This document shows positions 157-50,401 of a DNA stretch of 56,310 nt, piece after piece. The stretch lies in contig CAZPAS010000001.1 of the NCBI GenBank assembly GCA_964584575.1, positions 1-56,310 on the forward strand, in the 5' to 3' direction. A program made the translations under genes and the position numbers. The number at the start of each line of letters is the position of its first letter. Position 1 is the stretch's first letter. The notes beneath the pieces are model-generated. The model ran no database searches. It had not been told where the DNA came from and saw only the letters and a program-made list of their open reading frames with translations. The DNA comes from an uncultured Dehalococcoidaceae bacterium (GTDB lineage Bacteria; Chloroflexota; Dehalococcoidia; Dehalococcoidales; RBG-16-60-22).

Positions 157-162
157 AAAGAA

Positions 163-2498: not shown

Positions 2499-3682
2499 CA
2501 AGAGGGACGAAGATGAGTAATCCGTTAAGTTACTTTGGGACTACCGCCGCGCTGCTCGGCAGAGCGCTGGGGTTCCGCTACGCCAGAATGAGGACGGCGC
2601 CCCTCAAGCCGGAGGTGGTCAGCCTGGCGGTGACCAACCGCTGTAACTCGCACTGCATCATGTGCAATATGTGGAAGCGCGCTAAAGAGCACCCGGATAT
2701 CGAGTTCCTTGAAATGTCTCAACAAGAAATTATCGATATTTTCTCGCGTCCCCTCTTCTCAAACCTCGTAGAAATCGACCTTACCGGCGGGGAGCCCCAT
2801 CTCCGGGACGACCTCGCAGATATCGCGCTGGGTATAGCCGCACTCAAACCTAAATTCCTGCCTCACCTGCGAAGCATCGTCATCACATCCAACGGGCTGC
2901 TTCCAAAAAAAATAATCGACAACTATCAGAAAATACTGGAGGGGCTTAAGGGGAAAAATATCGACCTTGTATCCGTGGCGTCCCTGGACGGCATCGGGGA
3001 GACCCATGACAAGGTCAGGGGCACCAAGGGCGCTTTTCAGCTGGCTATGGGGACCATCGGCGGATTGCTGGAACTGAAGGGAAAATACCCTGACTACTTC
3101 ATCGGCGTGAAGACAACGGTCCTGCCGGAAAATATCGATAGCCTGAACGATATCCTCAAGTTCGCCGAAAAAGAAAAGCTCTTTCACATCATCTCGCCGG
3201 CATTCTTCACGGCGACCCGGTTCAGAAACAAAGAAAAACAGGAGGAACTGCGACTCGACTCCGCCAACGATGAGAAGTTACGCCTCTTTTACAATCGCCC
3301 CGAACTGAATACCAACTACTTTTACTCGAGGATACGCGGCTGGCTGTCCGAGGGACGGAAATGCTGGTCATGCACGGCGGCTTACAACTACATGTTCATC
3401 GAGTACGACGGCACCGTATATCCCTGCGAACTGCTCTCCGAGTCGATGGGTAACGTTAAGGAACAGGACCCGGAAACGGTCTGGAACAGCCCGCAGGCGC
3501 ACCAATGCCGTATGCTTATCGAAAATACGGAACAGTGCCGTAAATGCATCGAGCCGGGCGCCGTGCGTTACAGCGCCTGTACCGAGGGCATGAGCTACCT
3601 CGGATTTCTCAGAAAACTCGGCGTCAGCCGGTATAATAAAAGCCTCTCCGGCGAGGGTTTTAACAAGTACCTTGAGGGCTAG
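2495..3682 (+). CDS. Radical SAM enzyme with C-terminal twitch/SPASM-like auxiliary cluster region
   Basis: CNSHCIMC (CX3CX2C), LTGGEPHL, and a C-terminal CTAAYNYMFIEYDGTVYPC (CX12GX4C) followed by CRKC...C. The start is either ATG 2495 (ATGA overlap with the GT stop) or ATG 2513 (AGAGGGA Shine-Dalgarno 6 nt upstream). The ORF-track start at 2444 lies inside the GT gene. Confidence 0.85.
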   Translation: MTRGTKMSNPLSYFGTTAALLGRALGFRYARMRTAPLKPEVVSLAVTNRCNSHCIMCNMWKRAKEHPDIEFLEMSQQEIIDIFSRPLFSNLVEIDLTGGEPHLRDDLADIALGIAALKPKFLPHLRSIVITSNGLLPKKIIDNYQKILEGLKGKNIDLVSVASLDGIGETHDKVRGTKGAFQLAMGTIGGLLELKGKYPDYFIGVKTTVLPENIDSLNDILKFAEKEKLFHIISPAFFTATRFRNKEKQEELRLDSANDEKLRLFYNRPELNTNYFYSRIRGWLSEGRKCWSCTAAYNYMFIEYDGTVYPCELLSESMGNVKEQDPETVWNSPQAHQCRMLIENTEQCRKCIEPGAVRYSACTEGMSYLGFLRKLGVSRYNKSLSGEGFNKYLEG

Positions 3683-4797
3683 TCGTATTTAATGACCCAA
3701 CGCCCGATTACCTTCCGGGCGAGTATCGCCTCCCTGACTTCCTCGAGGTCGTCCAGCGTAATAAATCTGGTAATCAGCTTATCGGTCTTCAGGATGCCGG
3801 TATTCATGACTTCCATCAGGCTGGGAAGGTCCTCGGTGGGATGGGTCTCCCCGTAAAGCGTGCCTTTAATCGACTTGGCATGTAACGGCGCGTAAAACAT
3901 GGGGATATCGGTAGTCGAATTTATCGACGGTATGCCGATGGCAACCACCGTGCCGCCCGAGCGCAGTGAGTACCAGGCCTGCACCTGCGCCCCGGGGTCG
4001 CCGGTGGCTTCGATGGCGAACTGCAGTCCGGCGCCGTCGGTTAGTTCCTTGATGGCGGGGACGGGGTCTTCCTTGCCGGAATCGATGAAGTGGGTGGCGC
4101 CGAATTCCATGGCGATGTCCCTCTTCGAAGCCTCGATGTCGACGGCGATGACCGGATTACAGTTACGCAGCGCCGCGAAACGTATGGCGTTCAAACCGAT
4201 GCCGCCACAGCCCCACACCGCCAGGGAGTCGCCTTCCCTCGCCTGCGCCACGTTGACCACGCTCCCCCAGCCCGTCGCCACGGAGCAGCCCAGCTGGCAG
4301 AGCTGTTCGGGAGGCAGCTTGATATGGTCGGGCACCTTGATGGCGCCGATCTCCGGCATGACGCTGTGGGTGGCGAACCCGGCGATAAAGCTGCCGAGTC
4401 CGACCCTCTTGCCGTCCTTATCCGTCAACCGCGACGTGCCGTCGAGCAGGTTCCCCTCCTGGAAGAACTGCGCACTCGTCTCGCAGAGGTTGGGGCGTCC
4501 CCGCCGGCACTGGAAGCAGTAGCCGCAGGGCACCATCCAGCACCCGATGACGCGGTCGCCCGGTTTCAGCCTGGTTACGCCGGGACCTACTTTCTCCACC
4601 ACGGCGCAGGCTTCGTGTCCGGGCACCATCGGGACGTCCTGCGGTATATAGCCCAGCCAGACGGACGCGTCCGAGTGGCAGAACCCGCAGGCAAGCATTT
4701 TTACCTGTACCTCTTTCTCGCGGGGTTCCGCCAGTTCCAGTTCCTCTACCTCCATCGGCACGCCATACTCGCGTAAAACGGCAGCTCTGATTTTCAT
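3679..4797 (-). CDS. Zinc-dependent alcohol dehydrogenase (MDR family)
   Basis: CGFCHSD, GHEACAVVEKVG, structural-zinc CGYCFQCRRGRPNLC, and Rossmann VWGCGGIGL. Confidence 0.9.
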   Translation of the reverse strand: MKIRAAVLREYGVPMEVEELELAEPREKEVQVKMLACGFCHSDASVWLGYIPQDVPMVPGHEACAVVEKVGPGVTRLKPGDRVIGCWMVPCGYCFQCRRGRPNLCETSAQFFQEGNLLDGTSRLTDKDGKRVGLGSFIAGFATHSVMPEIGAIKVPDHIKLPPEQLCQLGCSVATGWGSVVNVAQAREGDSLAVWGCGGIGLNAIRFAALRNCNPVIAVDIEASKRDIAMEFGATHFIDSGKEDPVPAIKELTDGAGLQFAIEATGDPGAQVQAWYSLRSGGTVVAIGIPSINSTTDIPMFYAPLHAKSIKGTLYGETHPTEDLPSLMEVMNTGILKTDKLITRFITLDDLEEVREAILARKVIGRWVIKYD

Positions 4798-4815: not shown

Positions 4816-6060
4816 CTATTTGCAGTACTGGATATCGGCATTGGGGTAGACGGCGACCTTCGCGCCGGACTTATGATTCTCCCGGAGCAGCTTCAAGACA
4901 TCATCCCACTCATGCACCAGTATCACTCTATCCGTGTCTTCCAGGTAATTTTTACTGGAAAGCTCGGGGTATTCACTGAAAATAATCAGTCTGCTCACGT
5001 TCGACGGCGGCTTCATGCGCAGTCGCAGCTGTCCGCCGATATCGTTCCCGAAAGGGCCCATGAGGTAGTGGGTTATCTGTCCTTCCGGTGCGTTGGCGAT
5101 TAACACGACGTCCCCTCCTTTTTGACTTACCGAGGGAAAGGCGACCAGCAGACCGGTAATAGCCTCGTTTGCCTTGGCGAAGGAATTGGCGACGACGATG
5201 TCCTTGTCTTTAGCAGCGGGTGTAAGATAGTGTTTTGCCGCTTCTTCAAGAGCGGCGTCGTAAGCCGGTACAGGGGCGCCGGCGAAGATTGCCACCGTTT
5301 CCCCCCACGTATTAACGACGGCATCGATTTTCATATCCAGCCCGACCATGTCCGCAACCTCGTTAATTACATGGCGGCGTGGATTGTGTTTATATTTACC
5401 CATACCGGTGATGGTGTCTTTAACTCCTCCTGTCTCCGAAGACACCTGGGGGGTGTGCATAGCCGCTATCGCCCCGAAAGCCGCCACTCCCGGCAGGACT
5501 ATCTTGCTGCCCCCGCCGAACCCCGCCATGATATGCGGGACGATGGAGCCGATGCCTATTTTAAGGTCGCATTTCATTACCTCGGCATTGATATGCACTT
5601 TTATACCGCTGCTGGTCGTACCCGCGTATATGTTTTTCCCGTAAGGAGCGTGGTTATAGACCGGGAACCGCTTCATGACATCCTCGCCCAGCTTTTTGGC
5701 AAAGTCGATGCGGGTCATTGCCTGGTGGCAGCCGCAGGCGGCGATAAAGCGTATCTGGCTGTCCTTTATTCCGGCGGCAGCCAGCTCTTCCAGGACATGG
5801 GGCACTATTTCCGCCACGCGCGTTACCCGCGCCATATCATCAAAGATGATAACCACCTCTTTTTTCCCGCGGGCGTACTCCCGCAGCGGCGGCATGCCGA
5901 TGGGTCCGGATACGGCTTTCCTGATTTCGGCGGGTTTCAGGTGGGGGCGGTTGTACCCCGACATGTTGCAGACCTCTAACCCCCATTCCTCAGGGAAACT
6001 CAATTCCAGTTCCTTTACGCCGTGCCAGGCAAGCTGCGGCAGTTTTATTATGTTCACCAT
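4816..6060 (-). CDS. LarA-like nickel-pincer (NPN) dependent 2-hydroxyacid racemase/epimerase family protein (DUF2088)
   Basis: By-eye match to the LarA layout: PIGMPPLREYARGKKEVVIIFDD, ACGCHQ (His), VPHIMAGFGGGSKIVLPG (His and cofactor Lys), AAMH (His). GGGAGG Shine-Dalgarno precedes ATG 6060, so the track start at 6087 is probably too long. Confidence 0.7.
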   Translation of the reverse strand: MVNIIKLPQLAWHGVKELELSFPEEWGLEVCNMSGYNRPHLKPAEIRKAVSGPIGMPPLREYARGKKEVVIIFDDMARVTRVAEIVPHVLEELAAAGIKDSQIRFIAACGCHQAMTRIDFAKKLGEDVMKRFPVYNHAPYGKNIYAGTTSSGIKVHINAEVMKCDLKIGIGSIVPHIMAGFGGGSKIVLPGVAAFGAIAAMHTPQVSSETGGVKDTITGMGKYKHNPRRHVINEVADMVGLDMKIDAVVNTWGETVAIFAGAPVPAYDAALEEAAKHYLTPAAKDKDIVVANSFAKANEAITGLLVAFPSVSQKGGDVVLIANAPEGQITHYLMGPFGNDIGGQLRLRMKPPSNVSRLIIFSEYPELSSKNYLEDTDRVILVHEWDDVLKLLRENHKSGAKVAVYPNADIQYCK

Positions 6061-6407
6061 GTCAGACCTCCCGTGCCGGATGTGCATTCCGGTTCGTTAT
6101 TTCAAACCAATTATTACAGGGAATTAATATCAATTTCAAATTCCACCCCCATATCACCAAATTCACCGCCAGTTTACGTTGAAAAAGCGTTATTGATATT
6201 ACCGCAGGCTCGGCGCCGGGGCATTTTTTTATAAATCGTTTACATAACACATTGCATTATTAATCAAATATTTACCCGCCCGATGGTATATTTTCGCCAC
6301 ATGGCAAAGATATTCAAGGCTAACGGACATATATTTATTCATCTCCCTGCATGTATGGAAAGGTCCGTCGGCGCGGAAAATAGCTGTATCGGTGAGGGTA
6401 GAAAACA

Positions 6408-38742: not shown

Positions 38743-39246
38743 ATGCAAGTGGACACTGCACTGGATTTCGACACGATTCGCACGATAATCGAAAACAACG
38801 CCAGTAAGATTGAGGCGCTGATTGAAAGCTATACCGATAAGAAGGAACAGCTGATATCCCTGTTGCAGGATATCCAGGCAGAATACAATTATATACCCCA
38901 GGATGTCCTGATTAAAATCAGTCAGAAACTGGACATCCCCCTCAGCCAGGTATTCAGCGTAGCAACGTTCTTCCAGGCTTTCAGCCTCAAGCCGAGGGGA
39001 CGCCACACCATCACCATTTGCCTGGGTACGGCATGCCACGTGAAGGGCGGCCAGAGACTCGTCGATAAGATGGCGCGGGACTTCAAACTCCAGCCCGGCG
39101 AGACCACGGAAGACGAGAGGTTCACCCTGGAGACCGCCAACTGCCTGGGGTGCTGCGCCCTCGGCCCGGTGGTCGTCATCGACGGGAAATACGAAGGCCA
39201 GGTAAATCCGGGAAAGCTCGATAAAATCCTGAAAAATTACGAATAG
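38743..39246 (+). CDS. NuoE/HoxE/HydC-like [2Fe-2S] thioredoxin-fold subunit
   Basis: ITICLGTACHVKG ... CLGCCALGPVV four-Cys pattern; AGGAGG Shine-Dalgarno. Confidence 0.9.
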   Translation: MQVDTALDFDTIRTIIENNASKIEALIESYTDKKEQLISLLQDIQAEYNYIPQDVLIKISQKLDIPLSQVFSVATFFQAFSLKPRGRHTITICLGTACHVKGGQRLVDKMARDFKLQPGETTEDERFTLETANCLGCCALGPVVVIDGKYEGQVNPGKLDKILKNYE

Positions 39247-39266
39247 GCAAAGATGGGGGTTGAAAA

Positions 39267-41147
39267 ATGGTAGAGCAGGTAAAGAAATTACTGGACAGAA
39301 AACTCAAAAGCGTTAAGGAACTCGAGCAACTCCGTCAGTCTTTAACGAGCAAAAAGGACACCGCCCGCACCACCGTATCCGTGTGCGGCGGCACCGGCTG
39401 CCGCGCCTCCGGCGCTGAAGCGGTCGTCGAGGCTTTTGCGGAAGAAATAGAAAAACGGGAACTCCAGGTAACCGTGGAGTTCAAGGAAACGGGATGTCAC
39501 GGCTTCTGCGAGCGCGGCCCCGTCGTCGTCATCGGCCCCAAGAAAATATTTTACCAGCACGTCAAACCGGAGGATGTCCCGGAAATCATCAACGACACGG
39601 TCCTCCAGGACAAGGTAATCGAGCGACTGTGCTACACCGATGCCGCGACTAACCAGACAATCACCTACGAAGCGGACGTTCCCTTCTACAACCGGCAGAC
39701 CCGCCACATCCTGGGAGCCAACGGTGAGATAGACCCCACCGATATCGAGCAGTACATCGCCGCGGGCGGTTACGCCGCCCTGAGCAAGGCGCTGTTCGAG
39801 ATGAACCCGGATAAAATCGTCAACGAAGTCACTAAAGCCGGTCTGCGGGGCAGGGGCGGCGGCGGCTTCCCCACCGGTCGCAAATGGCAGTCCTGCCGCA
39901 CCTCCGAAAATGAGGTCAAGTACGTACTCTGTAACGCCGACGAAGGCGACCCCGGAGCGTACCAGGACCGCAGTATCCTCGAAGGAAATCCCCACAGCGT
40001 CATCGAGGGCATGATAATCGGCGCCTTCGCCATCGGCGCCCGCCAGGGTTTCATCTACGTGCGCAACGAGTACCCCCTCGCCGTAGAGCACACGCGGATA
40101 GCCCTGGAACAGGCGATGGACTACGGTTTCCTCGGCGAGAACATCCTCGGTTCCGGTTTTAATTTCAAGGTAACCATTAATAAGGGGGGAGGCGCCTTCG
40201 TCTGCGGCGAATCGAGCGCCCTGATAGCCTCCCTGGAAGGTAAGATAGGCGAACCCAAGTCCAAGTACACCCACATGTCCGAGAAGGGACTCTGGGACAA
40301 GCCCAGCCTGCTGAACAATGTCAAGACCTGGGCTAATATACCGCTGATAATCAATAAAGGCGCCGACTGGTATTCAAAAATCGGCACCGAAGGCAGCAAG
40401 GGCACCATGATATTCTCACTGGTCGGCAAGATTAACAACTCCGGCCTGGTGGAAGTGCCCATGGGCATCACGCTGCGCGAGATGATTTACGACATCGGCG
40501 GCGGTATCCCCAACGGCAAGAAATTCAAGGCGGTGCAGACCGGAGGTCCTTCCGGCGGCTGCATCCCCGAGGAGTTCCTCGATACGCCGGTGGACTTCGA
40601 CGAGCTGACCAAGCTCGGCTCGATGATGGGCTCCGGCGGCATGATTGTCATGGACGAGGACAACTGCATGGTGGACGTCGCCCGCTACTTCATCGACTTC
40701 CTCAAGGGAGAGTCCTGCGGCAAGTGCGTACCCTGTCGGGAAGGTCTTGCCAAGATGAGCGACATCCTCAACCGGATTACCCACGGCCAGGGCAAGCCGG
40801 AAGACCTGGATACGATGATGGACCTGGCGGACATCCTAAGCACCGGCGCCCTCTGCGCGCTGGGACGCACCGCCGCCAATCCCGTTATCAGCACCCTTAA
40901 GTACTTCAAAGACGAGTACCTGGCCCATATCAACGATAAGAAATGCCCGGCGGGCGTCTGCCACGAGCTTATCACCTACAGCATAGACGCCGAGAAATGT
41001 ACCGGCTGCGGTGCCTGCGCCCGGGCCTGCTCAACCAACGCTATCAGCGGAGAGAAGAAAGAACCCCACGTTATCAATCAGGGTATGTGCATCAAATGCG
41101 GAGTCTGCTATGACTCCTGTAAGTTCGGAGCGGTAATAAAACAGTAG
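39267..41147 (+). CDS. NuoF/HydB-like NAD(H)- and FMN-binding flavoprotein subunit with N-terminal [2Fe-2S] domain and C-terminal 2x[4Fe-4S] ferredoxin domain
   Basis: GLRGRGGGGFPTGRKW (FMN/NADH site); ESCGKCVPCREG; N-terminal CGGTGC...CHGFCERGP; C-terminal CTGCGACARAC ... CIKCGVCYDSC. Confidence 0.9.
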   Translation: MVEQVKKLLDRKLKSVKELEQLRQSLTSKKDTARTTVSVCGGTGCRASGAEAVVEAFAEEIEKRELQVTVEFKETGCHGFCERGPVVVIGPKKIFYQHVKPEDVPEIINDTVLQDKVIERLCYTDAATNQTITYEADVPFYNRQTRHILGANGEIDPTDIEQYIAAGGYAALSKALFEMNPDKIVNEVTKAGLRGRGGGGFPTGRKWQSCRTSENEVKYVLCNADEGDPGAYQDRSILEGNPHSVIEGMIIGAFAIGARQGFIYVRNEYPLAVEHTRIALEQAMDYGFLGENILGSGFNFKVTINKGGGAFVCGESSALIASLEGKIGEPKSKYTHMSEKGLWDKPSLLNNVKTWANIPLIINKGADWYSKIGTEGSKGTMIFSLVGKINNSGLVEVPMGITLREMIYDIGGGIPNGKKFKAVQTGGPSGGCIPEEFLDTPVDFDELTKLGSMMGSGGMIVMDEDNCMVDVARYFIDFLKGESCGKCVPCREGLAKMSDILNRITHGQGKPEDLDTMMDLADILSTGALCALGRTAANPVISTLKYFKDEYLAHINDKKCPAGVCHELITYSIDAEKCTGCGACARACSTNAISGEKKEPHVINQGMCIKCGVCYDSCKFGAVIKQ

Positions 41148-41160
41148 AAGGAGGCTGAAG

Positions 41161-41883
41161 ATGACTAAATATTGGATTAGTGGTGAACAAGCGGTCGAAA
41201 TAACGGCAGCGGAAGACAATAATGCCGTGCATCTTACCGTCGATGATAAAGATATCTGCGTATCCGGCGGCCAAACAATACTGGAGGCGGTGCAGCGTAT
41301 GTCCGGCATCGGCGACATCCCGGCTTTATGCTACCATCCCGCCGTTAAACCTTACGGCGCCTGCCGGCTGTGTACGGTAGAGGTAAGCGAGGACGGAGGC
41401 AAGAACTTCAGGTTCGTCGCCGCCTGCCTTTACCCGGTCAAGGAAGGTCTCATCGTCAAGACCAGTACCGAGAAGGTTAAAAAGCTGCGCAAGGGAATCA
41501 TCGAGCTGTTGCTGGCGAGATGCCCTTCGGCCAGAGTGGTACAGGACCTCGCCGAGGAGTACGGAGTGGAAAAACCCCGGTTCACCGCGGGCGACCATGA
41601 CTGTATTCTCTGCGGCCTGTGCGTCAGGGCATGCCAGGAGATAATCGGCCAATCGGCAATAAGTCTGGTGAACCGCGGCATCTACAAGGAAGTTGCTGCC
41701 CCCTTCTACGCTTATGAACTTGGTGAGGGATGTATCGGCTGCGGCGATTGCGCCTTCGTGTGCCCCACCGGCGCGATTACCATGGGCGAAAACGGCAAGC
41801 CGGTCCTGCCCAGGGTTAAGATACCTTACGCGGAAATCGGCGCCATGATGTCGGAAGAAAAAGCCTCCACATCCAAAGGCTAA
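41161..41883 (+). CDS. NuoG/HydA N-terminal-like iron-sulfur protein ([2Fe-2S] plus [4Fe-4S] clusters only, no catalytic domain)
   Basis: CYHPAVKPYGACRLCTVEV ([2Fe-2S]); CILCGLCVRAC and CIGCGDCAFVCP ([4Fe-4S]). It ends at 240 aa and is followed by a strong terminator. Confidence 0.8.
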   Translation: MTKYWISGEQAVEITAAEDNNAVHLTVDDKDICVSGGQTILEAVQRMSGIGDIPALCYHPAVKPYGACRLCTVEVSEDGGKNFRFVAACLYPVKEGLIVKTSTEKVKKLRKGIIELLLARCPSARVVQDLAEEYGVEKPRFTAGDHDCILCGLCVRACQEIIGQSAISLVNRGIYKEVAAPFYAYELGEGCIGCGDCAFVCPTGAITMGENGKPVLPRVKIPYAEIGAMMSEEKASTSKG

Positions 41884-42045: not shown

Positions 42046-42522
42046 ATGTATGATAAAAAAGTTCTCGGACTGGACGAATGTCTGAAGACCGTGGAAGCCA
42101 TGGTTGCTGAAAATAAAAGGCAGGGCGGTTTACCAATCGCGATTGCCATAGTAGATGAACACGGCGACCTTCTCTGCTACGCCAAGATGGACTCGGTTCC
42201 CAGGGCCCCCGGCGAGGTCCAGGGCTATGTGGACAGCGGCGGCTACATGGCAATCAAGAAGGCATTAACGTCGGCACACTTCAGGGGAGACGCTAAAAAA
42301 CTGTCCGAAATGATGACCAAGATGAACCGGAATATCGCGGTTGACTTTGACGCCAGGTACGTAGCCCTCTCGAACGGCGGGGCGGCCGCTATCGTGAAGC
42401 CGGGCGAGAAAACCGTATACGGCGCCATCGGGGTCGGCGGTCGTGTGCCGGGGGAGGGCGATGAGGAGATGGCGCAGTACGGCTTAAAGGTTATGCAGGA
42501 CATCCTCTGGCCGTCTAAATAG
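42046..42522 (+). CDS. GlcG/HbpS-like (DUF336) haem-binding family protein
   Basis: IAIAIVDEHGDLLCYAKMD ... GAIGVGG motifs; 158 aa. Confidence 0.8.
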   Translation: MYDKKVLGLDECLKTVEAMVAENKRQGGLPIAIAIVDEHGDLLCYAKMDSVPRAPGEVQGYVDSGGYMAIKKALTSAHFRGDAKKLSEMMTKMNRNIAVDFDARYVALSNGGAAAIVKPGEKTVYGAIGVGGRVPGEGDEEMAQYGLKVMQDILWPSK

Positions 42523-42547: not shown

Positions 42548-43435
42548 CTACTCGTGCTCAGTCGGGAGGAACTGTTTTTCACTGAGGAACCGGACTACGG
42601 TTTTGGCTATCTTATTCGGGTCGCCTTCGAGCATATCGCTCTGCTTCTGGGTAACGCCTCCGGATATAACGAGGCGTAATCGTTCCTCCGCAGAAAGATG
42701 GGAGTCCGGTGTGAAAATTTTTTTGGGTCGCGGCTTTGGATAAGAGAGTCCCGTGGTCACGGTTCTGGAACCTTCGGAGCCGACCTCCCCGTAAGAGAGC
42801 CCGAGTGCTTCCCGGTTACACTCCGTGATATCCTTTCTAAGCCCTGCCATCAGCGACGGCAGGCTGGGATACCGCGGCTCGTTAAGGTCAAGCTCCACCG
42901 TGAATAACGCCGGGAGAGAGACCTCTATTCGGGCCCGGTTGCCTTTCTCAAGTTTGCTTTCTATATCGGCTTTCCCAGCATCGGGAGAAATATCAATTTT
43001 TACGACTCTCGATACTAACGGTATATCGAGCTTTTCCGCGATGACGCTGCCGACCTGCCCGGCCTCGGTATCGATAGCCTTCTGCCCGCAGAGGATGAGG
43101 TCGTATTGACCGGAACTGATGTATTTGGCCAGTATTACCCCGGTAGCATAGCTATCTGCACTATCGAAATCTTTGTCCCAGAGGAGTACCGCCTCATCCG
43201 CGCCCAGAGCCAGACACTGGCCCAACAATCCCTTTACTGAAGGGGGCGCCATAGATATCAGGGTGACCCGGCTGTTCATGACCCTTTCCTTTATCCGCAC
43301 GGCTTCTTCAAGGGCGACCATGTCGCAGGGATTTACTATGTAGACGAGGTCATCGCCGTTAATCAGACCGGTATCCGGGTCCAGGGTAACAATACTGACA
43401 TCGGGCACCGGCTTGACACATACCGCAATGTTCAC
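42548..43435 (-). CDS. etfB: Electron transfer flavoprotein beta-subunit-like protein with C-terminal insertion (paralogue of 163-1053)
   Basis: GTG start with a GGAGGAG Shine-Dalgarno. Motifs are MNIAVCVKPVPD, VNPCDMVALEEAV and DTEAGQVGSVIAEKLDIPLVS. It shares the tail YPKPRPKK...MLEG with the first copy. Confidence 0.85.
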   Translation of the reverse strand: MNIAVCVKPVPDVSIVTLDPDTGLINGDDLVYIVNPCDMVALEEAVRIKERVMNSRVTLISMAPPSVKGLLGQCLALGADEAVLLWDKDFDSADSYATGVILAKYISSGQYDLILCGQKAIDTEAGQVGSVIAEKLDIPLVSRVVKIDISPDAGKADIESKLEKGNRARIEVSLPALFTVELDLNEPRYPSLPSLMAGLRKDITECNREALGLSYGEVGSEGSRTVTTGLSYPKPRPKKIFTPDSHLSAEERLRLVISGGVTQKQSDMLEGDPNKIAKTVVRFLSEKQFLPTEHE

Positions 43436-43465
43436 CAGGCTCCTCCGCGATTCATACTTCCGTTA

Positions 43466-43735
43466 TTAACCATAGCGCAAACATACCCCGAAACCACCCT
43501 GCGGGTAATTCCAATCGATAGCGCCTGCCTTGCAGGCGATGCGGCAGGCGCCGCATTCCACGCACCCCTGCCACGAAAATACCAGCCTGTCTTCCTCCAG
43601 CGTATAATTCTGCACCGGACAGACATAAAGGCAGGCTTTCTCCCGACAGGTATCGCATATGCCGGTATCCACCCTGATATGCGGCTCGTCATCGACATTG
43701 AATCTAATGGTGGCCAGTTTGTCCTCTATGGCCAT
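43466..43735 (-). CDS. fixX: FixX-type ferredoxin-like protein
   Basis: 89 aa; CDTCREKACLYVCP ... CVECGACRIAC; overlaps the fixC stop by 10 nt. Confidence 0.85.
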   Translation of the reverse strand: MAIEDKLATIRFNVDDEPHIRVDTGICDTCREKACLYVCPVQNYTLEEDRLVFSWQGCVECGACRIACKAGAIDWNYPQGGFGVCLRYG

Positions 43736-45033
43736 ATCAGTGCCCTTCCTGCCTGTATGATATCTTTAACCAGTTGCCAGAATGATATTTTTCCCTTCAT
43801 CTCCTCCCTGACCAGGCTGAGTATTTTCTTTCTCGGTTTACCGTTGACCCGGAATATCCTTCTCGATATTCCACAGACCAGCGAAGGATATAACTCGTAT
43901 ATGCGGGGGTTGTCCTGAAATGCCGGGGCATGGCGGAAGGTTTTCATATCCTGAAGCACAAAGCTTTCCTCGAGCAGTCTTCTGTAAGAGGCAAGCCCTT
44001 TCCTGGTGAAATCCCCTTTCTGGCTGGCCGTGATGATAGCCTGCGCGGCGGCATAGCCGGAAGCAATAGCTAAATTCATTCCCTGAAGGGTGAGTCCCGT
44101 AGATACCAGCAAGCCGGCCGCGTCACCCGCTACCAGCAAGCCATCGCAGCAGAGTTCCGGGACCATCTTCATCCCCGCTTCAGGAATCAGGTGTCCCGAA
44201 TACTCCTTCAGGATGGTATCTTTGATAGCCGGTTTAACGCAGGGACTATTCTTGAAATTATCCAGGAGTTCGGCAATTGATATTTGCTTTTCCTGCAATG
44301 AATTCAACCTGACGACGATTCCGAGAGACAGGCTGGTCTTGTTGGTATAAAGAAAGGCGCCTCCCGCCAACCCCCGGGTACAGTCCCCGATGAAACTCTG
44401 GGCCAGGCCCTCGCCTTTGGAAAGACCGAACCTCGCCTCTATGATTTCCTCTGGTAGAGCCAGTACCTCCTTGGCAGCGACGGCAAAGGACGAATTGTCA
44501 TATTCCTTCCGGAGGCCGGCTTTTTTCGCCAGCAGGGAATTGGCGCCGTCGGCGGCGATGACGACATCGGCAAGCACTTCTCCCTCGGCTCTCCGAGCTG
44601 TGACCCCGGTTACCTTATCCCCGTCCCGGATAAGGTCATCTACGACCGTACCCGGGATAATAAAAGCTCCGGCCTCCTGTGCTCTTTCAGCATACCAGGG
44701 GTCGAATTTAGCTCTCAGTAAGGTAACGCCGTTGTAAGGCGGAGAGCCGAATTCATCGTCCGAAGGGGTTATGGAAAAGGACGAACCGGCAGTCAGGAAG
44801 GTAAGGACATGCCTGGTTACATACCTTTCAATCGGGGCCTGATTCCAGAAATCGGGTAGAAGCTCTTCGAGCTCCCGGGTATAATAAAGCACCCCGCCGA
44901 ACATGTTCTTGGTGCCGGGTCGGTCACCCCTCTCGAAAATCGCGACCTTCATCCCGGCCCGCGCCAGTACGATAGCCGCGGTGCAGCCGGCCGGCCCGGC
45001 GCCGACGATTACGACGTCAAACTTCTCAGGCAT
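43726..45033 (-). CDS. fixC: FixC-type FAD-dependent oxidoreductase (ETF-quinone oxidoreductase-like)
   Basis: MPEKFDVVIVGAGPAGCTAA dinucleotide fold. ATG 45033 overlaps the etfA stop by 8 nt, so the track start at 45123 is too long. Confidence 0.85.
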   Translation of the reverse strand: MPEKFDVVIVGAGPAGCTAAIVLARAGMKVAIFERGDRPGTKNMFGGVLYYTRELEELLPDFWNQAPIERYVTRHVLTFLTAGSSFSITPSDDEFGSPPYNGVTLLRAKFDPWYAERAQEAGAFIIPGTVVDDLIRDGDKVTGVTARRAEGEVLADVVIAADGANSLLAKKAGLRKEYDNSSFAVAAKEVLALPEEIIEARFGLSKGEGLAQSFIGDCTRGLAGGAFLYTNKTSLSLGIVVRLNSLQEKQISIAELLDNFKNSPCVKPAIKDTILKEYSGHLIPEAGMKMVPELCCDGLLVAGDAAGLLVSTGLTLQGMNLAIASGYAAAQAIITASQKGDFTRKGLASYRRLLEESFVLQDMKTFRHAPAFQDNPRIYELYPSLVCGISRRIFRVNGKPRKKILSLVREEMKGKISFWQLVKDIIQAGRALIWP

Positions 45034-46057
45034 TACCCGCCTCGGCGTTATTATTGTCCGTTTCCTCAGCCGCCTCAGGCAGCTCTTCGATAATGGCGGA
45101 AATAACCCCGGTAACGTCTCCAATGATACTCATGTCCGCTACTTTAAAAATCGGGGCGTTGCGGTCTTTATTAATGGCGATGATAAACCCGGAGTCTTTC
45201 ATGCCCAGGACGTGGTAGACCGAACCCGAGATGCCACAAGCAACGTACAGCTTCGGGGCGACGGTCGTACCGGTCTGTCCGACGAGTTTCTTGCGGGGCA
45301 GCCAGCCTTCATCCACCGCTCCCAGAGAGCCTGCCACGACACCTCCTAAACGCCCGGCAAACCCCTCAAGAAGCTGAACATTTTCAAGGCTGCCCACTCC
45401 CTTACCGCCGGCTACGATAACTTCGGCTTCATCAAGACTGATTTTATCAGGAGCAGCTTTAACCACGCTTTTTACGCGTATACGTCTCTCACCCCGGCCC
45501 GGCTCCGGCGTAATTTCTCTTATCTTCGCCTGCCTGGTGTTATCCTGACGTGATACCGTCATTATGCCGGGTTTAACCGTGGCTATCTGTGTGCCTGATG
45601 ACGGGCAGAGAATCGTGCTGCTTATCCTGCCGCCATGGGTGAGTCTGGTCCCCGTTAGTCGCCCATTATCATTGATGGACAGGATGATGCACTCGGAAAT
45701 CAGCCCGGTACCCAGCCTGGCCGCCAGTCTGGGGGCCAGTTCGCGACCGGTCAGGGTAGCTCCGCACAGAAATATGTCGGGAGATTCATCCTTAATAAGC
45801 CCGGATAGGACTTCTGTATAAAAATCAGTGCTGTATTCAAATTGTCGGGAGTTATCCAGAAGAAATATATCATCGGCGCCATAACTCGCCAGTTCCCCGG
45901 CCAGCACCTGGCTGTCGTTGCCGACTGCTAATGCAACGACCCGGCCCCCAAGGTCATCGGCCAGCTGCCGGCCACAACTCAAGGTCTCCAGGCTGGCAGC
46001 TTCTATCTGACTTTCTTCACGCTCGATAAGGACCCAGACACTCTTGCTTTCAGACAC
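45026..46057 (-). CDS. etfA: Electron transfer flavoprotein alpha subunit (EtfA/FixB)
   Basis: GTG start. The C-terminal FAD-binding region is LYVACGISGSVYHVLGMKDSGFIIAINKDRNAPIF. Confidence 0.85.
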   Translation of the reverse strand: MSESKSVWVLIEREESQIEAASLETLSCGRQLADDLGGRVVALAVGNDSQVLAGELASYGADDIFLLDNSRQFEYSTDFYTEVLSGLIKDESPDIFLCGATLTGRELAPRLAARLGTGLISECIILSINDNGRLTGTRLTHGGRISSTILCPSSGTQIATVKPGIMTVSRQDNTRQAKIREITPEPGRGERRIRVKSVVKAAPDKISLDEAEVIVAGGKGVGSLENVQLLEGFAGRLGGVVAGSLGAVDEGWLPRKKLVGQTGTTVAPKLYVACGISGSVYHVLGMKDSGFIIAINKDRNAPIFKVADMSIIGDVTGVISAIIEELPEAAEETDNNNAEAGNA

Positions 46058-46091
46058 TTTTTGGTATTCTTTCTCTTAATATCGGGCCGGT

Positions 46092-48056
46092 CTACAACCA
46101 CCGGCCGGCATTAGCTCCGTCCCAGACCGAGTCCTGCAGGAGACGCGGAGCGAGGCAGTGACCTACGGAATAAATTTCCTTCACTTCGCCTTTCAGGGCA
46201 CGATACAGGGCATCATCCGCTCTCCCGATTGCCGAATATACCACCGTATCCACTCCCTCAATACGCCTTTCGGCGCCGGTAACGGCATGGGCCACCACCA
46301 CGGTACTGCCCGCTATCTCCCTGACCTGTGTCAGGGGCGTAATGACGCCGCCGTTGCTCAATAGCTGCTGGTACATAAATGTCAGGGTGTTGGTCTCCAG
46401 TTCGGAACCGGCGTAGAGGCAATGCGTAATTAATTCTACCTTCTTTCCTTTATCCGTGAGGAAGATAGCCACCCCCAGCGCCTGTTCGTGCTGCTCGGCG
46501 GCAATTACCACCACATTTTCACCGACTTCTACTTTTTCCTGCAAAACATCGCGTACCCACACCACATTGTCACTATCGCCGCCCTTTACCATGGGCCTGG
46601 CAGGCACCGAACCCGTAGCTATCACTACGGCGTCCGGGTTCTTTTCCCTGACCATTTCCGGCGTGACTTCCGTTTCACGTACGACTTCCACGCCGAGCAG
46701 CCCCATCTGGTAGGTATAATACCTGGGGACCTCGGCGAAGTCTTCCCTTTTCGGTATCCTGGCGGCTATATTCAGCTGACCTCCCAGTTCTCTTTCCTTC
46801 TCATAAAGGGTAACCCGGTGCCCTCTCAGCGCGGCGACTCTGGCTGTCTCCAGGCCGGCGGCCCCCCCGCCGATTACCATCACCGTCTTTTTCGTCTCCG
46901 CCGGGATTATTGTCGCCATCTGCTCTTCCCTGCCCGCTTCCGGGTTGATGGCGCAGGTAACAGGAGCCCGCCTCAAGAAGTTGCCGGCACAGGACTGGAT
47001 ACAGGCGATACACTTGCGTATCTCCTCGACTCTACCCTCCCGCGCCTTGTTGGGCCATTCGGGGTCACAGATAAGTCCCCGGGCTATGCCGATAAGGTCC
47101 GCCTGATTGTCCGTCAGTATCTGCTCGGCCTGGACCGGGTCGTTGATTCTGCCGTGGCATATCACCGGGAGACTGACCACTTCCTTAACGCCGGCGGCCA
47201 GATAAACGAAGCACCCCAGCGGGAAATGCATGGGAGGAATGTGTCCGGCCATACCGGCGCTGATACTCAGATAGTCAACCTTACCGTCGTCCTCAACTTT
47301 GGCAGCGAGCACTTTAGTATCGTCAAGGGTTGTGCCGCCGTTCATCAGCATATCGCCGACCAGCCTTAGACCTACCACGAAATCCGGGCCGACGGCTTTC
47401 CTGACGGCATCGATAATTTCCATCTGGAACCTGAAACGATTGTCCAGGCTGCCGCCATACTCATCGGTACGCCTGTTACCAAAAGGCGACAGAAATGAAG
47501 TGAGTAGTCCGCCGGTACCCATGTCGGAGGTAATTTCAACGCCGTCATAACCCGTTTCCTGCATTCTTCGGGCCGATTCGGCATATGACTTTATGATTAA
47601 TTTTATCTCTTCGATGCTTATCTCGTGGGAAACGCTGTTTCCCAGCGCATTAGGCAGCATCCCCATTACTCCTCCCCCGGCGGTAGCTGCAAATCCCGCG
47701 CCCGCGTCGTCTATAAAACCGGTCAATGAACCGAGATGCGTCAGCTGTGCCACGACCGCGGCACCATTGTCATGCACAGCCCTGCTAATCATTTCAAAAG
47801 CGGGCATTGCTTTATCATCGCAGGTGGCGATATAACTGCGGGATGTACTCGAAGGCCATACCACGTTCTGCGGCGTGACGATAAGTCCGGCACCTCCCCT
47901 GGCCCTGGCTGCCAGGTAATGCATCATTCTTTCGTTCGGAGCTTCACCCTCGCCGTAAAAAGCCGTACAATGAGCGGGGCATACTATCCTGTTACGCAGT
48001 GTTATATTGCCTATCTTGACGGGTGAAAATAGGTGTTTGAATTCCTGCTCGGCCAT
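46092..48056 (-). CDS. OYE-domain / FAD-NAD(P)-domain flavoenzyme with [4Fe-4S] (2,4-dienoyl-CoA reductase / enoate reductase family), paralogue A
   Basis: N-terminal OYE TIM-barrel pattern (FSPVKIGNITLRNRIV); CIACIQSCAGNFLRRAPVTC (CX2CX3CX11C); VMVIGGGAAGLE Rossmann; 654 aa. Confidence 0.85.
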   Translation of the reverse strand: MAEQEFKHLFSPVKIGNITLRNRIVCPAHCTAFYGEGEAPNERMMHYLAARARGGAGLIVTPQNVVWPSSTSRSYIATCDDKAMPAFEMISRAVHDNGAAVVAQLTHLGSLTGFIDDAGAGFAATAGGGVMGMLPNALGNSVSHEISIEEIKLIIKSYAESARRMQETGYDGVEITSDMGTGGLLTSFLSPFGNRRTDEYGGSLDNRFRFQMEIIDAVRKAVGPDFVVGLRLVGDMLMNGGTTLDDTKVLAAKVEDDGKVDYLSISAGMAGHIPPMHFPLGCFVYLAAGVKEVVSLPVICHGRINDPVQAEQILTDNQADLIGIARGLICDPEWPNKAREGRVEEIRKCIACIQSCAGNFLRRAPVTCAINPEAGREEQMATIIPAETKKTVMVIGGGAAGLETARVAALRGHRVTLYEKERELGGQLNIAARIPKREDFAEVPRYYTYQMGLLGVEVVRETEVTPEMVREKNPDAVVIATGSVPARPMVKGGDSDNVVWVRDVLQEKVEVGENVVVIAAEQHEQALGVAIFLTDKGKKVELITHCLYAGSELETNTLTFMYQQLLSNGGVITPLTQVREIAGSTVVVAHAVTGAERRIEGVDTVVYSAIGRADDALYRALKGEVKEIYSVGHCLAPRLLQDSVWDGANAGRWL

Positions 48057-48121
48057 GTTCGTACTCCCAATTTCAAGTATTTGATTACCTGCGAATGCAC
48101 TTGACTGTTATTCCTGATGAT

Positions 48122-50050
48122 TTATATTCCCCTGGCCGCGACATAGGCATCGGCTATGGAATCGAGCAATTTCCGCGGTGAGAAAGCCTGCCCGACGAGG
48201 TACAGCTCTTTTACCTGCCCTTTAAGGGCATGATAGAGTTCATCGTTGGCTTTCTCATCGGTGCAGACAACGACGGTATCAATCTCCTCTATTTGCCGCT
48301 CAGCATTAGTAATCACGTGATAAACGGTGGCGGTCTTTCCATTTACTTCTTTTAGACCCGTGAGGGGCGTTATTACCACTCCCCGGCTGAGAGCGTTAAG
48401 GTAGGCGGTTTCGATGGTGTAAATATCTACTTCTGTGCCCGCGAAGGCCGCATCGGTTATCAGTTCCACCTTCTTGCCTCTCTCCGCCAGGAAATCGGCG
48501 ACATCCAGACCGTAGAGGTGGTGCTGGTAGTCTACCACCAGTACGTTCTGCCCGACCTCTACTTCTTCCGAGAGGACCTTCTTCATTTCTACCACATTTC
48601 CATTTTCAGAACCCGGGATTTCCGGCATAAAAGGCAGTCCTCCGGTAGCGACGATAACGGCGTCAGGCTGCTGCCGGACAACCATCTCCTGTGTTACATT
48701 CGTCCCCAGGTGCACATCAACGCCAAGTGATTGCATCTGGTAAGCCAGGTATCTCTTTGCTTCGGAAAAATCCTGCCTTCCGGGCGCCTTGGCGGCAATA
48801 TCCAGGTCCCTGGCCAGGGTATCGTTCTTCTCATACAGAGATACTGCATGGCCCCTTAATGCGGCTACCCTGGCGGCTTCGAGTCCGGCGGCTCCGCCGC
48901 CGATTACCATTACCTTCTTTTTTACTTCGGCAGGTTTGATGGGGCCCTGACTTTCCCGTCCTGTTTCATAATTAAGGGCACAGGCAATCGGCAGTTGCAT
49001 GAAACTGGGCCCGACACAACCCTCGTTACAGGCGATGCACCGGCGGATATCCTCCAGTCTGCCTTCCCGCGCCTTATTCGGCATTTCGGGATCGCACATG
49101 AGCGCCCGGGTCATACCGATAATATCCGCCTGGTGATTAGCCAGCACGCTTTCCGCCAGCACCGGGTCGTTAATCCTGCCGACGACGACTACAGGAAGAT
49201 CGACGGCTTCTTTAATCGCAGCGGAAATATAGGTAAAAGCACCCAGCGGGAAGTACATGGGAGGCACGTGCCCCGAGCCGACGGCATCGGCGCAGGCAAA
49301 CAGGTAGTCCACCTTACCCGTTGCTTCCAGTGCTCTGGCAATCTCTTTCGCTTCGTCGAGGGTATTCCCGTGCTCACCGGTCCACCAGACGCGTTCGATG
49401 AACTCATCCCCGTTAAATCTCACGCCCAGGGGCATTTCCGGCCCGATGTTCTCTCTGATAGAATCGATGCACTCCAGCAGAAACCTCATGCGGTTCTCCA
49501 GGCTTCCCCCGTATTCATCGGTGCGGGTGTTTAAAATCGGGGAGATAAACTGGGCCTGAAGCAGGGACCAGGCAGCCATAATCTCGATGCCGTCATACCC
49601 GGCTTTTTTCATGACCAGGGCAGCTGCCCCGAACGCTTGTACAAAACGCCTGATATCGTCCTTGTCCATGGAATGCGGAACGCCAGCCGGTCCTGCCTTA
49701 AGCGGCCATCTGACCTTTACCGGCGATGGCGCCAGCGTCGCGCCGCCACCGGTCATCCGTGCCCACATACGCCCGCCATGATGGAACAACTGGGCGAAAA
49801 TTCTCGTGGGATACTGATGCACGGCATCGGTCAGCGCTTTCAACTCGGGAATCACGGATTCATTGGTGGTAAACGGGGCATGAGGCGATGACATAACCAT
49901 TCCGGCGCCACCCCTGGCTCTAGCGGCAAAATACTGTATCTTGCTGTCACCGGTCAGCCTGGGAAAAGCCCCCGTTAATATTATCCTGTTGGGCAAAGTC
50001 ACATTGCCTAGCTTGATGGGCGAAAAAAGATTCTTAAATTCCTGCTCCAT
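48122..50050 (-). CDS. OYE-domain / FAD-NAD(P)-domain flavoenzyme with [4Fe-4S] (2,4-dienoyl-CoA reductase / enoate reductase family), paralogue B
   Basis: FSPIKLGNVTLPNRII; CIACNEGCVGPSFMQLPIAC; VMVIGGGAAGLE; 642 aa. Confidence 0.85.
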   Translation of the reverse strand: MEQEFKNLFSPIKLGNVTLPNRIILTGAFPRLTGDSKIQYFAARARGGAGMVMSSPHAPFTTNESVIPELKALTDAVHQYPTRIFAQLFHHGGRMWARMTGGGATLAPSPVKVRWPLKAGPAGVPHSMDKDDIRRFVQAFGAAALVMKKAGYDGIEIMAAWSLLQAQFISPILNTRTDEYGGSLENRMRFLLECIDSIRENIGPEMPLGVRFNGDEFIERVWWTGEHGNTLDEAKEIARALEATGKVDYLFACADAVGSGHVPPMYFPLGAFTYISAAIKEAVDLPVVVVGRINDPVLAESVLANHQADIIGMTRALMCDPEMPNKAREGRLEDIRRCIACNEGCVGPSFMQLPIACALNYETGRESQGPIKPAEVKKKVMVIGGGAAGLEAARVAALRGHAVSLYEKNDTLARDLDIAAKAPGRQDFSEAKRYLAYQMQSLGVDVHLGTNVTQEMVVRQQPDAVIVATGGLPFMPEIPGSENGNVVEMKKVLSEEVEVGQNVLVVDYQHHLYGLDVADFLAERGKKVELITDAAFAGTEVDIYTIETAYLNALSRGVVITPLTGLKEVNGKTATVYHVITNAERQIEEIDTVVVCTDEKANDELYHALKGQVKELYLVGQAFSPRKLLDSIADAYVAARGI

Positions 50051-50182: not shown

Positions 50183-50211
50183 ACTTTAACTGGTTGAACT
50201 ATCCTTGTCAA
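50183..50211 (-). promoter_or_regulatory. Sigma70-like promoter candidate (TTGACA-17-TAAAGT) for the OYE/ETF operon
   Basis: On the minus strand, TTGACA (50206-50211) and TAAAGT (50183-50188) have a 17-nt spacer. This implies a 5' leader of about 125 nt before ATG 50050. Confidence 0.4.
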
Positions 50212-50325: not shown

Positions 50326-50401
50326 TGGTGGAGCCGGCGGGATTCGAACCCGCTACCTTTTGACTGCCAGTCAAACGTTCTCCCAAGTGAACTACGGCCC
50401 C
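50326..50401 (-). tRNA. tRNA-Ala (anticodon GGC), CCA encoded
   Basis: The reverse complement folds as a cloverleaf: acceptor GGGGCCG/CGGCUCC with G3:U70, D arm GUUC/GAAC, anticodon arm UUUGA-CUGGCAG-UCAAA, variable loop AGGUA, and T arm GCGGG-UUCGAAU-CCCGC, ending ACCA. Length is 76 nt. Confidence 0.92.

Follow-up and report, generated by a model that had tools for sequence, protein, structure and literature searches.

Layout of the gene cluster

Six genes on the minus strand of a 56,310-nt stretch (positions 1-56,310 of contig CAZPAS010000001.1, called the window here) encode two paralogous old-yellow-enzyme-type (OYE-type) flavoenzymes together with both subunits of an electron-transfer flavoprotein (ETF) and homologues of FixC and FixX, in the order OYE1-OYE2-etfA-fixC-fixX-etfB (42548-50050). 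The contig belongs to a metagenome-assembled genome (MAG) of an uncultured Dehalococcoidaceae bacterium (GCA_964584575.1; 2.14 Mb, 241 contigs, 86% complete), and the sequencing-run listing places the stretch in salt-marsh metagenomes. Sequence comparisons indicate that the cluster is real and conserved. It is a detached version, with two enzymes, of the 'mycofactocin-type' OYE-ETF-FixCX module, itself uncharacterised. The reading that we prefer, with a probability of roughly 0.6, is that OYE1 and OYE2 are substrate-specific Fe-S flavoenzymes which work independently of NAD(P)H and have the co-encoded ETF as their sole redox partner, with a path onward through FixC and FixX (FixCX).

The open reading frames lie at the places given in a preliminary description of this DNA, and the gaps between successive genes, of 65, 34, -8, -10 and 30 nt, match it exactly (Table 1). 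Since the genes overlap or are closely spaced, one transcript for all six is expected. The preliminary description had also placed a promoter-like element upstream of OYE1. The element is present and is the region's top consensus match, but the region holds 9 promoter-like matches against 6.9 +/- 2.7 in shuffled sequence, i.e. no excess, and TTGACA-17-TAAAGT is best taken as a plausible promoter candidate.

Table 1. Features of the OYE-ETF cluster and of other parts of the window (positions are those of the window)
Feature	Position	Strand	Description
OYE1	48122-50050	-	642 aa, ATG start; three-domain FMN / [4Fe-4S] / FAD-type flavoenzyme
OYE2	46092-48056	-	654 aa, ATG start; OYE1 paralogue
etfA, ETF large subunit	45026-46057	-	343 aa, GTG start
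fixC, FAD-dependent ETF-oxidoreductase homologue	43726-45033	-	435 aa, ATG start; 8-nt overlap with etfA
fixX, ferredoxin-like protein	43466-43735	-	89 aa, ATG start
etfB, ETF small subunit	42548-43435	-	295 aa, GTG start
OYE1 active-site segment MAAWSLLQAQF	49547-49579	-	replaces ene-reductase H-x-x-H/N-G-Y
OYE1 segment VVDYQHHLYGLD	48503-48538	-	replaces NAD(P)H-binding GxGxxG loop; aligned to FadH 502-507 (GCGGIG)
OYE2 active-site segment DMGTGGLLTSF	47493-47525	-	Gly183 opposite NCR Y197, FadH Y166
OYE2 segment VIAAEQHEQALG	46473-46508	-	replaces NAD(P)H-binding loop
EtfB 'zipper' segment AIDTEAGQVG	43049-43078	-	DTEAGQ in place of DGDT[AG]Q
EtfB insertion YPKPRPKKIFTPDSHLSAEERLRLVISGG	42656-42742	-	residues 232-260; predicted docking element for OYE enzyme
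Promoter-like element TTGACA-17-TAAAGT	50183-50211	-	upstream of OYE1; consensus match at 10/12 positions
tRNA-Ala(GGC)	50326-50401	-	directly upstream of promoter-like element
HbpS-like/GlcG gene (PF03928)	42046-42522	+	convergent neighbour of operon; Pfam
Tail of mycofactocin operon	10-3682	+	fixX fragment, etfB 163-1053, mftF 1050-2498, radical SAM gene 2444-3682
Zn-alcohol dehydrogenase, NDMA-dependent (nicotinoprotein) type	3679-4797	-	TIGR03989 311 bits, cut-off 440
LarA-like nickel-pincer racemase homologue	4816-6087	-	

Cofactor domains and active sites of OYE1 and OYE2

Both large enzymes carry the Pfam domains Oxidored_FMN (PF00724; E-values 6.5e-56 in OYE1, 1.5e-63 in OYE2) and Pyr_redox_2 (PF07992). 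A CX2CX3CX11C motif (residues 338-357 in OYE1, 349-368 in OYE2) and a GGGAAG motif (384-389 and 396-401) align with their counterparts in FadH, and full-length identity between the two proteins is 47%. The motifs and an identity of 45-50% estimated by eye in the preliminary description were thereby reproduced. By domain and motif content the two are three-domain OYE-like Fe-S flavoenzymes of the architecture found in FadH, 2-naphthoyl-CoA reductase (NCR) and trimethylamine dehydrogenase (TMADH).

In a multiple alignment anchored on E. coli FadH and holding 35 relatives, the relatives that are not linked to ETF genes retain the H-x-x-H/N-G-Y segment with its tyrosine (FadH Y166) as well as the GxGxxG loop (FadH 502-507). 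None of the ETF-linked enzymes compared retains this glycine-rich NAD(P)H loop. Its place is taken by a non-glycine segment that carries a two-residue insertion, in OYE1 and OYE2, in the third paralogue OYE3 (which a mycofactocin operon of this genome encodes) and in the remaining ETF-linked enzymes; in OYE3 the segment reads IDNDGHHQ, and the enzymes of Desulfosarcina widdelii (G045) and of genome G122 have similar non-glycine segments. Direct use of NAD(P)H by the enzymes, which the preliminary description had named as an outcome opposed to its own proposal, finds no NAD(P)H site in the sequences.

The proton-donor tyrosine has been called invariant in the family (PMC6502838). It is missing from OYE1, OYE2 and OYE3, together with one or both of the histidines. 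In OYE1 both histidines and the tyrosine are replaced, W-S-L standing where the others have H-G-Y in the alignment with FadH, and in OYE2 the HMMER alignments to 6QKG (NCR) and 1PS9 (FadH) as well as the multiple alignment set Gly183 opposite the catalytic position. A classical activated alkene is probably not the substrate of either enzyme. Since the active-site segments differ between the two and their lineages are separate and old, OYE1 and OYE2 probably have different substrates or take successive intermediates.

These replacements bear on the chemistry that had been proposed for the cluster. In the preliminary description the two enzymes were to carry out two consecutive C=C or aryl-ring reductions, a proposal that is not supported, as both lack the proton-donor tyrosine and the histidine pair. 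Spelled out more fully, such a model would have EtfAB-FixCX bifurcate electrons from NADH, sending one share downhill to FixCX and quinone and a low-potential share to OYE1 and OYE2 for reductions like those of NCR and 5,6-dihydro-2-naphthoyl-CoA reductase (DHNCR). We regard this model as a whole as quite unlikely, and Gly183 in OYE2, its counterpart in OYE1 and the missing histidine pair are a first argument against it.

Phylogenetic placement

A clade of 34 rows (SH-aLRT 99) unites all primary ETF-linked enzymes among the rows of the tree and leaves FadH and the NAD(P)H-type enzymes outside. The primary ETF-linked OYEs of D. widdelii and of G122 were left out as tree rows, and NCR, DHNCR, TMADH and enoate reductase were compared by phmmer scores and alignments. 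The phylogenetic placement called for in the preliminary description was thus obtained from the tree in the case of FadH, and for NCR, which is judged to lie outside the clade, by score only. The clade consists of two branches, one of mycofactocin-linked enzymes with a Thermoleophilia sequence and the other of OYE1, OYE2 and further ETF-linked homologues, and within it OYE1 and OYE2 are separate, old lineages.

The top NCBIfam model for both enzymes is TIGR03997, at 572 bits for OYE1 and 638 bits for OYE2. Its cut-off of 793 bits excludes both from membership, and the paralogue OYE3 reaches 934 bits. The OYE1/OYE2 clade is, as far as tree and profile scores tell, the sister of the TIGR03997 'mycofactocin system FadH/OYE oxidoreductase 2' enzymes, and many OYE2 orthologues have been labelled 'mycofactocin system FadH/OYE family oxidoreductase 2' by JGI. 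Judged by homology, the ETF-linked OYE-FeS branch as a whole is large and phylogenetically coherent, and hundreds of metagenomic sequences, 50-90% identical, belong to it. An origin of OYE1/OYE2 by recent duplication of the mycofactocin-linked module was ruled out; OYE2 and OYE3 are just 43% identical, EtfA and its mycofactocin counterpart EtfA2 31%, and the closer relatives of OYE1 and of OYE2 are each found in other phyla in the tree.

Among solved structures, OYE2 matches NCR best in phmmer searches (309 bits), then FadH (281); histamine dehydrogenase (HADH, 200) and TMADH (161) are also detected. That NCR is the top match, that it also is without an NADPH site and that its natural low-potential donor is unidentified (PMC6502838) all speak for a bifurcating system that feeds NCR-like reductions. 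However, an ordinary paralogue within the same genome scores 329 bits against OYE2, so that NCR is no closer than a generic relative. The two enzymes stand in the sister clade of the mycofactocin OYE_2 enzymes, a further point on which the consecutive reductions of the preliminary description find no support.

Conservation of the linkage to ETF genes

The same six-gene order recurs in genomes of the same genus or family (G001, G002, G004, G008 and G017) and at loci L024-L033, at 70-89% identity. Rearranged versions are also found. One locus (L028) has an OYE gene on each side, as OYE-etfA-fixC-fixX-etfB...OYE2, another (L030) has OYE2 singly, and a third (L031) reads OYE1-etfA-etfB-HbpS-OYE2 and is without fixCX; in D. 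widdelii the order is OYE-etfA-etfB-OYE and in G122 it is etfB-OYE-etfA. The linkage of OYE and ETF is thus kept through at least five gene orders in two phyla, at many loci of Dehalococcoidia and of Thermodesulfobacteriota. Three database homologues at 51-58% identity were followed up by reading their contigs, and all three are ETF-linked, two of them beside FixCX genes that follow this unusual arrangement and one beside a CCG-type Fe-S oxidoreductase; their neighbours include TRAP transporters, a CoA ligase and enoyl-CoA hydratases. At about 20 loci of remoter OYE-FeS genes (29-36% identity, mostly from gut Bacillota) no ETF gene was found in flanks of up to 9 kb per side, less on short contigs.

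The operon conservation that the preliminary description had proposed to look for is therefore evident, as the six-gene order in relatives and as OYE-ETF pairing at rearranged loci. Three findings uphold its central claim, a dedicated ETF partner: the linkage survives rearrangement in two phyla, the NAD(P)H loop has gone from the ETF-linked enzymes, and EtfB carries a clade-specific insertion, described below.

One alternative to a dedicated partner is that the OYE and etf/fix genes are merely adjacent and that free ferredoxin or some other donor supplies the enzymes. A ferredoxin-like donor has been suggested for NCR (PMC6502838), and NuoE-, NuoF- and ferredoxin-like genes lie close to the cluster, here and at one further locus. 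Yet the linkage survives the rearrangements just listed, the overlaps and short gaps between the genes point to one transcript, the EtfB insertion goes together with OYE linkage and the OYE2-EtfB complex model passes its controls. Mere adjacency is accordingly the reading that we hold to be very improbable.

Type of the ETF

The etfA product matches PF01012 (ETF) and PF00766 (ETF_alpha), and the etfB product PF01012. The type of the ETF was judged by the motif statistics of PMC8958531 and by how closely the subunits match solved chains. For EtfA the scores are 186-280 bits with bifurcating ETFs (CarE 280, C. difficile 263, T. maritima 225) versus at most 127 with canonical ones, and for EtfB 117-149 bits (CarD 149 to LctB 117, with T. 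maritima at 121) versus 81-104 (M. methylotrophus 104, human 86). Both subunits are thus nearer to the bifurcating ETFs (CarDE, C. difficile, A. fermentans, T. maritima EtfABCX and LctBC) than to the canonical ones, and by this measure the ETF falls outside the non-bifurcating fatty-acid-oxidation group, an assignment that the preliminary description had set against its own proposal. In the EtfA tree the subunits of OYE-linked and mycofactocin-linked modules form a clade (support 95/94), with two other ETFs of the same genome (L005 and L006) and the E. coli proteins outside it; the third (L007) was too incomplete for a row.

The similarity to bifurcating ETFs does not extend to the 'zipper', the peptide around the phosphates of the bifurcating FAD. 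This reads DGDT[AG]Q in 216 bifurcating ETFs, with the threonine in 100%, and DDDxNQ in canonical ETFs (PMC8958531). In our alignments DGDT[AG]Q is present in all five solved bifurcating ETFs. The window EtfB has DTEAGQ instead, the mycofactocin-linked EtfB of this genome has DTGNGQ, and nearly all other OYE-linked EtfBs are of the DTxxGQ type, the motif search giving no match at two OYE-/mycofactocin-linked loci. Two further ETFs of the genome keep the bifurcating-type signature (L005 DGDTAQ, L007 DGDTGQ), and E. coli FixA and YdiQ have DLYAQQ. A second segment reads ADSYATG where bifurcating ETFs have ADT[WL]AT[ST], and the positions taken from numbering as those of the ribityl-binding Thr94 and Thr97 of RpaETF are Ser and Thr in the window EtfB.

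Classification by signature residues, as had been suggested in the preliminary description, therefore gives a divided answer, in which the overall closeness to bifurcating ETFs stands and the DGDT[AG]Q signature is wanting. In support of a bifurcating complex one may cite the two sets of scores, the Ser/Thr pair and the bifurcating activity of EtfABCX/FixABCX complexes (PMC10734219). The replaced zipper, which two other ETFs in the same genome have kept, and the occurrence of modules that have no fixCX (L031, D. widdelii and G122) point the other way. On these data the ETF is a distinct lineage derived from bifurcating-type stock.

Two observations concern the other ETFs of this genome. One of them (L006, contig C95, 2815-4667, plus strand) has a DTNAGQ zipper and neither the EtfB insertion nor an OYE neighbour. 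The EtfA of L005 is longer (407-446 aa by two open reading frame calls) and may carry an extra N-terminal domain.

The EtfB insertion and its predicted docking

EtfB is about 290-304 aa long in OYE-linked and mycofactocin-linked modules versus 256-270 aa in the others, and the difference is an insertion of about 28 residues with the pattern PKPRPKK-FTPDS-LSAEERLRL-SGG. All OYE-linked and mycofactocin-linked EtfBs compared have it, with or without fixCX or mycofactocin genes; it is missing from this genome's three other ETFs, from E. coli FixA and from the rest of the ETFs compared. Within the C-terminal half of the EtfB alignment, most invariant columns belong to it.

A complex model of OYE2 with EtfB gave an ipSAE of 0.81, the best of three controls 0.00. 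Of 80 solved complexes, 58 reached this mark, as did 2 of 110 mismatched pairs; the counts are approximate, because the alignments supplied to the model were our own. Three model runs agreed in at least 98% of the contacts, and partner pLDDT was at least 79. The predicted interface joins EtfB 235-259, i.e. the insertion, to residues 235-292 and 316-318 of the OYE2 barrel domain. The model supports binding of OYE2 to EtfB by way of the insertion. It also places the enzyme on the C-terminal arm of EtfB, which we take to lie near the domain of the electron-transfer FAD, where high-potential partners dock, and this predicted position is a further point against bifurcation. A role of the insertion as an arm for binding FixC was ruled out, as the insertion is kept at loci without fixCX (L031, L059, G122 and G045).

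Proposed electron path

If OYE1 and OYE2 have the co-encoded ETF as their sole redox partner, electrons would pass from the substrate to FMN, on to the [4Fe-4S] cluster and the FAD (or the ADP-site domain) and from there to the electron-transfer FAD of the ETF. They would then continue to the FAD of FixC, the Fe-S centre of FixX and a membrane quinone or an equivalent acceptor. In such a scheme the ETF FAD would shuttle between the OYE enzyme and FixC, and the EtfB insertion, found only in OYE-partnered ETFs, would according to the model hold the ETF on the enzyme. We infer the physical docking, the path through FixCX and the direction of the electrons alike. Oxidation of substrate towards FixCX is in our view more likely than the reverse, in which the ETF would act as donor, because by analogy TMADH and the acyl-CoA dehydrogenases pass electrons to ETF and then to ETF-quinone oxidoreductase.

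The genes encoded with the ETF are homologues of fixC and fixX. In Pfam, fixC matches FAD-oxidoreductase families and fixX Fer4 families, including Fer4_ETF_QO weakly. The top NCBIfam models are NF007450 (413 bits, cut-off 466) and NF007542 FixC (395 bits) for fixC, and NF011993 FixX (57 bits, cut-off 166) for fixX.

Several points tell against ETF as the sole partner and FixCX as the outlet. The direction in which electrons flow does not follow from the sequence, and fixC and fixX score below the NCBIfam equivalog cut-offs. A quinone acceptor is not established, because in this 86%-complete MAG no MenA is found above the cut-off of 102 bits (two UbiA-type genes reach 81 and 75) and neither MqnA nor MqnD was found. 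A Thermoleophilia member of the ETF-linked clade (L034) has lost the loop yet has no ETF gene within 9 kb. Loop loss and ETF linkage trace to a single clade and so to about one evolutionary event. The docking is a prediction, and the homologous TMADH-ETF pair has been solved, so some memory effect is possible, although the interface differs; in the solved complex the ETF docks through the recognition loop of EtfB and not through the insertion segment. Finally, among the sequencing runs listed as containing the stretch there are only salt-marsh DNA metagenomes and no RNA runs.

Relation to the mycofactocin system

The genome carries a second set of OYE, ETF and FixCX genes in a mycofactocin (mft) operon, mftA-B-C-OYE3-etfA-fixC-fixX-etfB-mftF, which is split between contig C27 and the start of the window. 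The part on C27 (L001, 172-5962, minus strand) holds mftA, mftB, mftC, OYE3, etfA and fixC and the start of fixX at the contig end. MftA has 39 aa and ends in IDGVCGVY, MftC scores 362 bits against TIGR03962 (cut-off 265) and MftF 340 bits against TIGR03965 (cut-off 280). MftD and MftE were not found in this MAG, and no search aimed at MftG was made. The same operon order recurs in the family and in Thermodesulfobacteriota. The operon ends at 2498 and the OYE1/OYE2 cluster begins at 42548, some 40 kb further on.

One may ask whether the cluster is a second mycofactocin OYE-ETF-FixCX module, which would oxidise or reduce mycofactocin(ol) or a derivative and would link the pool to the membrane or to NAD/ferredoxin in the place of MftG. 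TIGR03997 as the top model for both enzymes, the sister relationship to mft-linked enzymes and the OYE-etfA-fixC-fixX-etfB order shared with the mft operon argue for it. So does the distribution of MftC, which was found in all six genomes with the tandem cluster (G000 and five relatives) among the 41 searched, the cluster occurring in none of the 26 MftC-negative ones. MftC is also present in G042 and G043 and altogether in 8 of the 10 genomes with OYE1/OYE2 orthologues, G041 being a 0.8-Mb fragment. MftG is the known mycofactocinol dehydrogenase and occurs in 75% of mft genomes (PMC11778925).

On the other hand, both enzymes fall below the TIGR03997 cut-off and lie 42 kb from mftC, and the co-occurrence with MftC is one among close kin and not independent. 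G044 has orthologues of OYE1 (72%) and OYE2 (70%) with EtfAB, and neither MftC nor MftF was found in this MAG, whose completeness is not established. No mft markers were found in D. widdelii (complete genome) or in G122 (at least 90% complete), both of which have OYE-ETF clusters, and the homologues at 51-58% identity stand among TRAP transporter, CoA ligase and enoyl-CoA hydratase genes and not among mft genes. We consider a role as second mycofactocin module unlikely, and an extension of the mycofactocin link to this cluster equally doubtful. Because of the mft-negative genomes and of neighbourhoods that point to CoA esters and organic acids, dependence on ETF is treated here as the constant trait, the mycofactocin link as a trait of one sub-branch. 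Among the papers searched, none combined Dehalococcoidia with mycofactocin.

Three features of the mft operons deserve mention in their own right. The mft-linked OYE3 enzymes have C-x2-D-x3-C-x11-C, the second cluster cysteine being Asp, both here (L001:2570-4525, minus strand) and in orthologues (L013-L023, L076 and L078) from Dehalococcoidia and Thermodesulfobacteriota, which suggests an Asp-ligated or a [3Fe-4S] cluster. A Thermodesulfobacteriota mft operon (L081; G075:C126, 7875-11773, minus strand) has two tandem OYE genes after mftC, one of the Asp variant and the other with four cysteines, and about 2.9 kb between its etfA and etfB that are not FixC-like; tandem OYE pairs thus occur inside mft operons too. 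Just downstream of the mft operon in the window lie the Zn-alcohol dehydrogenase and LarA-like genes (Table 1).

Comparison with known systems

The preliminary description had not recognised a coupling of this type as characterised. There are, however, precedents in TMADH and HADH, which use ETF (PMC6502838), in the NCBIfam models for mycofactocin-associated OYE and ETF proteins and in the JGI names. TMADH and HADH (Methylophilus methylotrophus W3A1; 1O94 and 3K30) share the three-domain architecture of an FMN barrel, a [4Fe-4S] linker and two Rossmann-type domains; they likewise are without an NAD(P)H site, and they pass electrons from the [4Fe-4S] cluster to ETF, their physiological partner (PMC6502838). 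Their scores are far below those of NCR and FadH against OYE2, TMADH has as its partner a canonical ETF without the EtfB insertion, and the TMADH operon is without fixCX. At the position which we take to be that of the 6-S-cysteinyl-FMN cysteine of TMADH, OYE2 orthologues have C, W, G or V, and there is no counterpart in OYE1.

There is also a close likeness to the mycofactocin module defined by TIGR03997 and the ETF models NF038209 and TIGR04503, which has the same gene order, likewise lacks the NAD(P)H loop and the tyrosine, and shares the EtfB insertion and a zipper of the DTxxGQ type. The window cluster differs in having two OYE genes and not one, in not standing beside mftABC and in the four-cysteine Fe-S motif of its enzymes, and its ETF subunits score well below the mycofactocin models (EtfA 134 bits versus a cut-off of 240, EtfB 86 versus 200).

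The EtfABCX/FixABCX complexes of T. maritima (7KOE), Pyrobaculum aerophilum and Azotobacter vinelandii consist of the same four subunit types, with homologous FixC and FixX. Their usual gene order is etfB-etfA-fixC-fixX; in the window it is etfA-fixC-fixX-etfB, EtfB has the additional insertion and no DGDT[AG]Q, and the operon includes an extra enzyme partner. NCR and FadH have the same cofactor architecture as OYE1 and OYE2, but they are not ETF-dependent, and NCR Y197, FadH Y166 and the FadH GxGxxG loop are replaced in the window enzymes. An ETF, with or without FixCX, that serves a substrate oxidoreductase encoded nearby is also seen in CaiA/FixABCX and YdiO/YdiQRST of E. coli, where FixABCX serves CaiA and YdiQRST serves YdiO, and in Bcd-EtfAB and CarCDE. 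The partners in these systems have the acyl-CoA dehydrogenase fold and are not OYE-type Fe-S enzymes, and FixA and YdiQ have no insertion besides their divergent zipper.

Some members of the OYE family reduce C=C bonds with NAD(P)H, and in the equol cluster of Coriobacteriia an OYE-type daidzein reductase is conserved beside putative ETF genes (PMC4965515). None of the papers searched makes a relevant connection between EtfAB and an enoate reductase or OYE; two on anaerobic benzene, which had come up through FadH and Pelotomaculum, deal with another flavoprotein and were set aside.

The OYE-FeS family is known for difficult reductions (of dienoyl-CoA, bile acids, bilirubin and naphthoyl-CoA), and for several of its members the natural donor is unidentified. 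The branch described here appears to have given up NAD(P)H for a tailor-made ETF with a predicted docking insertion, usually together with FixCX or an HdrD-like Fe-S oxidoreductase. It can be recognised in sequence data by the EtfB insertion, the altered zipper, the replaced Tyr and His residues and, in the mycofactocin branch, the Cys-to-Asp ligand. The findings bear on the re-oxidation of mycofactocin in anaerobes without MftG, and on the question whether ETF bifurcation reaches beyond partners of the acyl-CoA dehydrogenase fold and lactate dehydrogenases. One may speculate that an OYE-type Fe-S flavoprotein docked via the EtfB insertion to a divergent EtfAB-FixCX makes up a new class of ETF-based bifurcating or confurcating complexes, an idea to which we assign a low probability. 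Were it true, its role could be low-potential hydride chemistry or an anaerobic outlet of the mycofactocin pool, and the module in the mft operon, its sister, would supply the functional counterpart of MftG that anaerobes are missing.

Neighbouring genes

A gene set and a single gene adjoin the operon. On the plus strand (38743-41883) lie genes for a NuoE-like protein, a NuoF-like protein with extra 2Fe-2S and 4Fe-4S domains and a 240-aa 2Fe-2S/4Fe-4S protein, and a similar set is found near the OYE-ETF cluster at L029; it could constitute an NADH/ferredoxin-linked module. The HbpS-like/GlcG gene is a conserved neighbour of OYE-ETF clusters, adjoining the cluster at five loci (L008, L009, L012, L024 and L032), lying inside it at L031 and near it at L028, and occurring twice at L060/L061.

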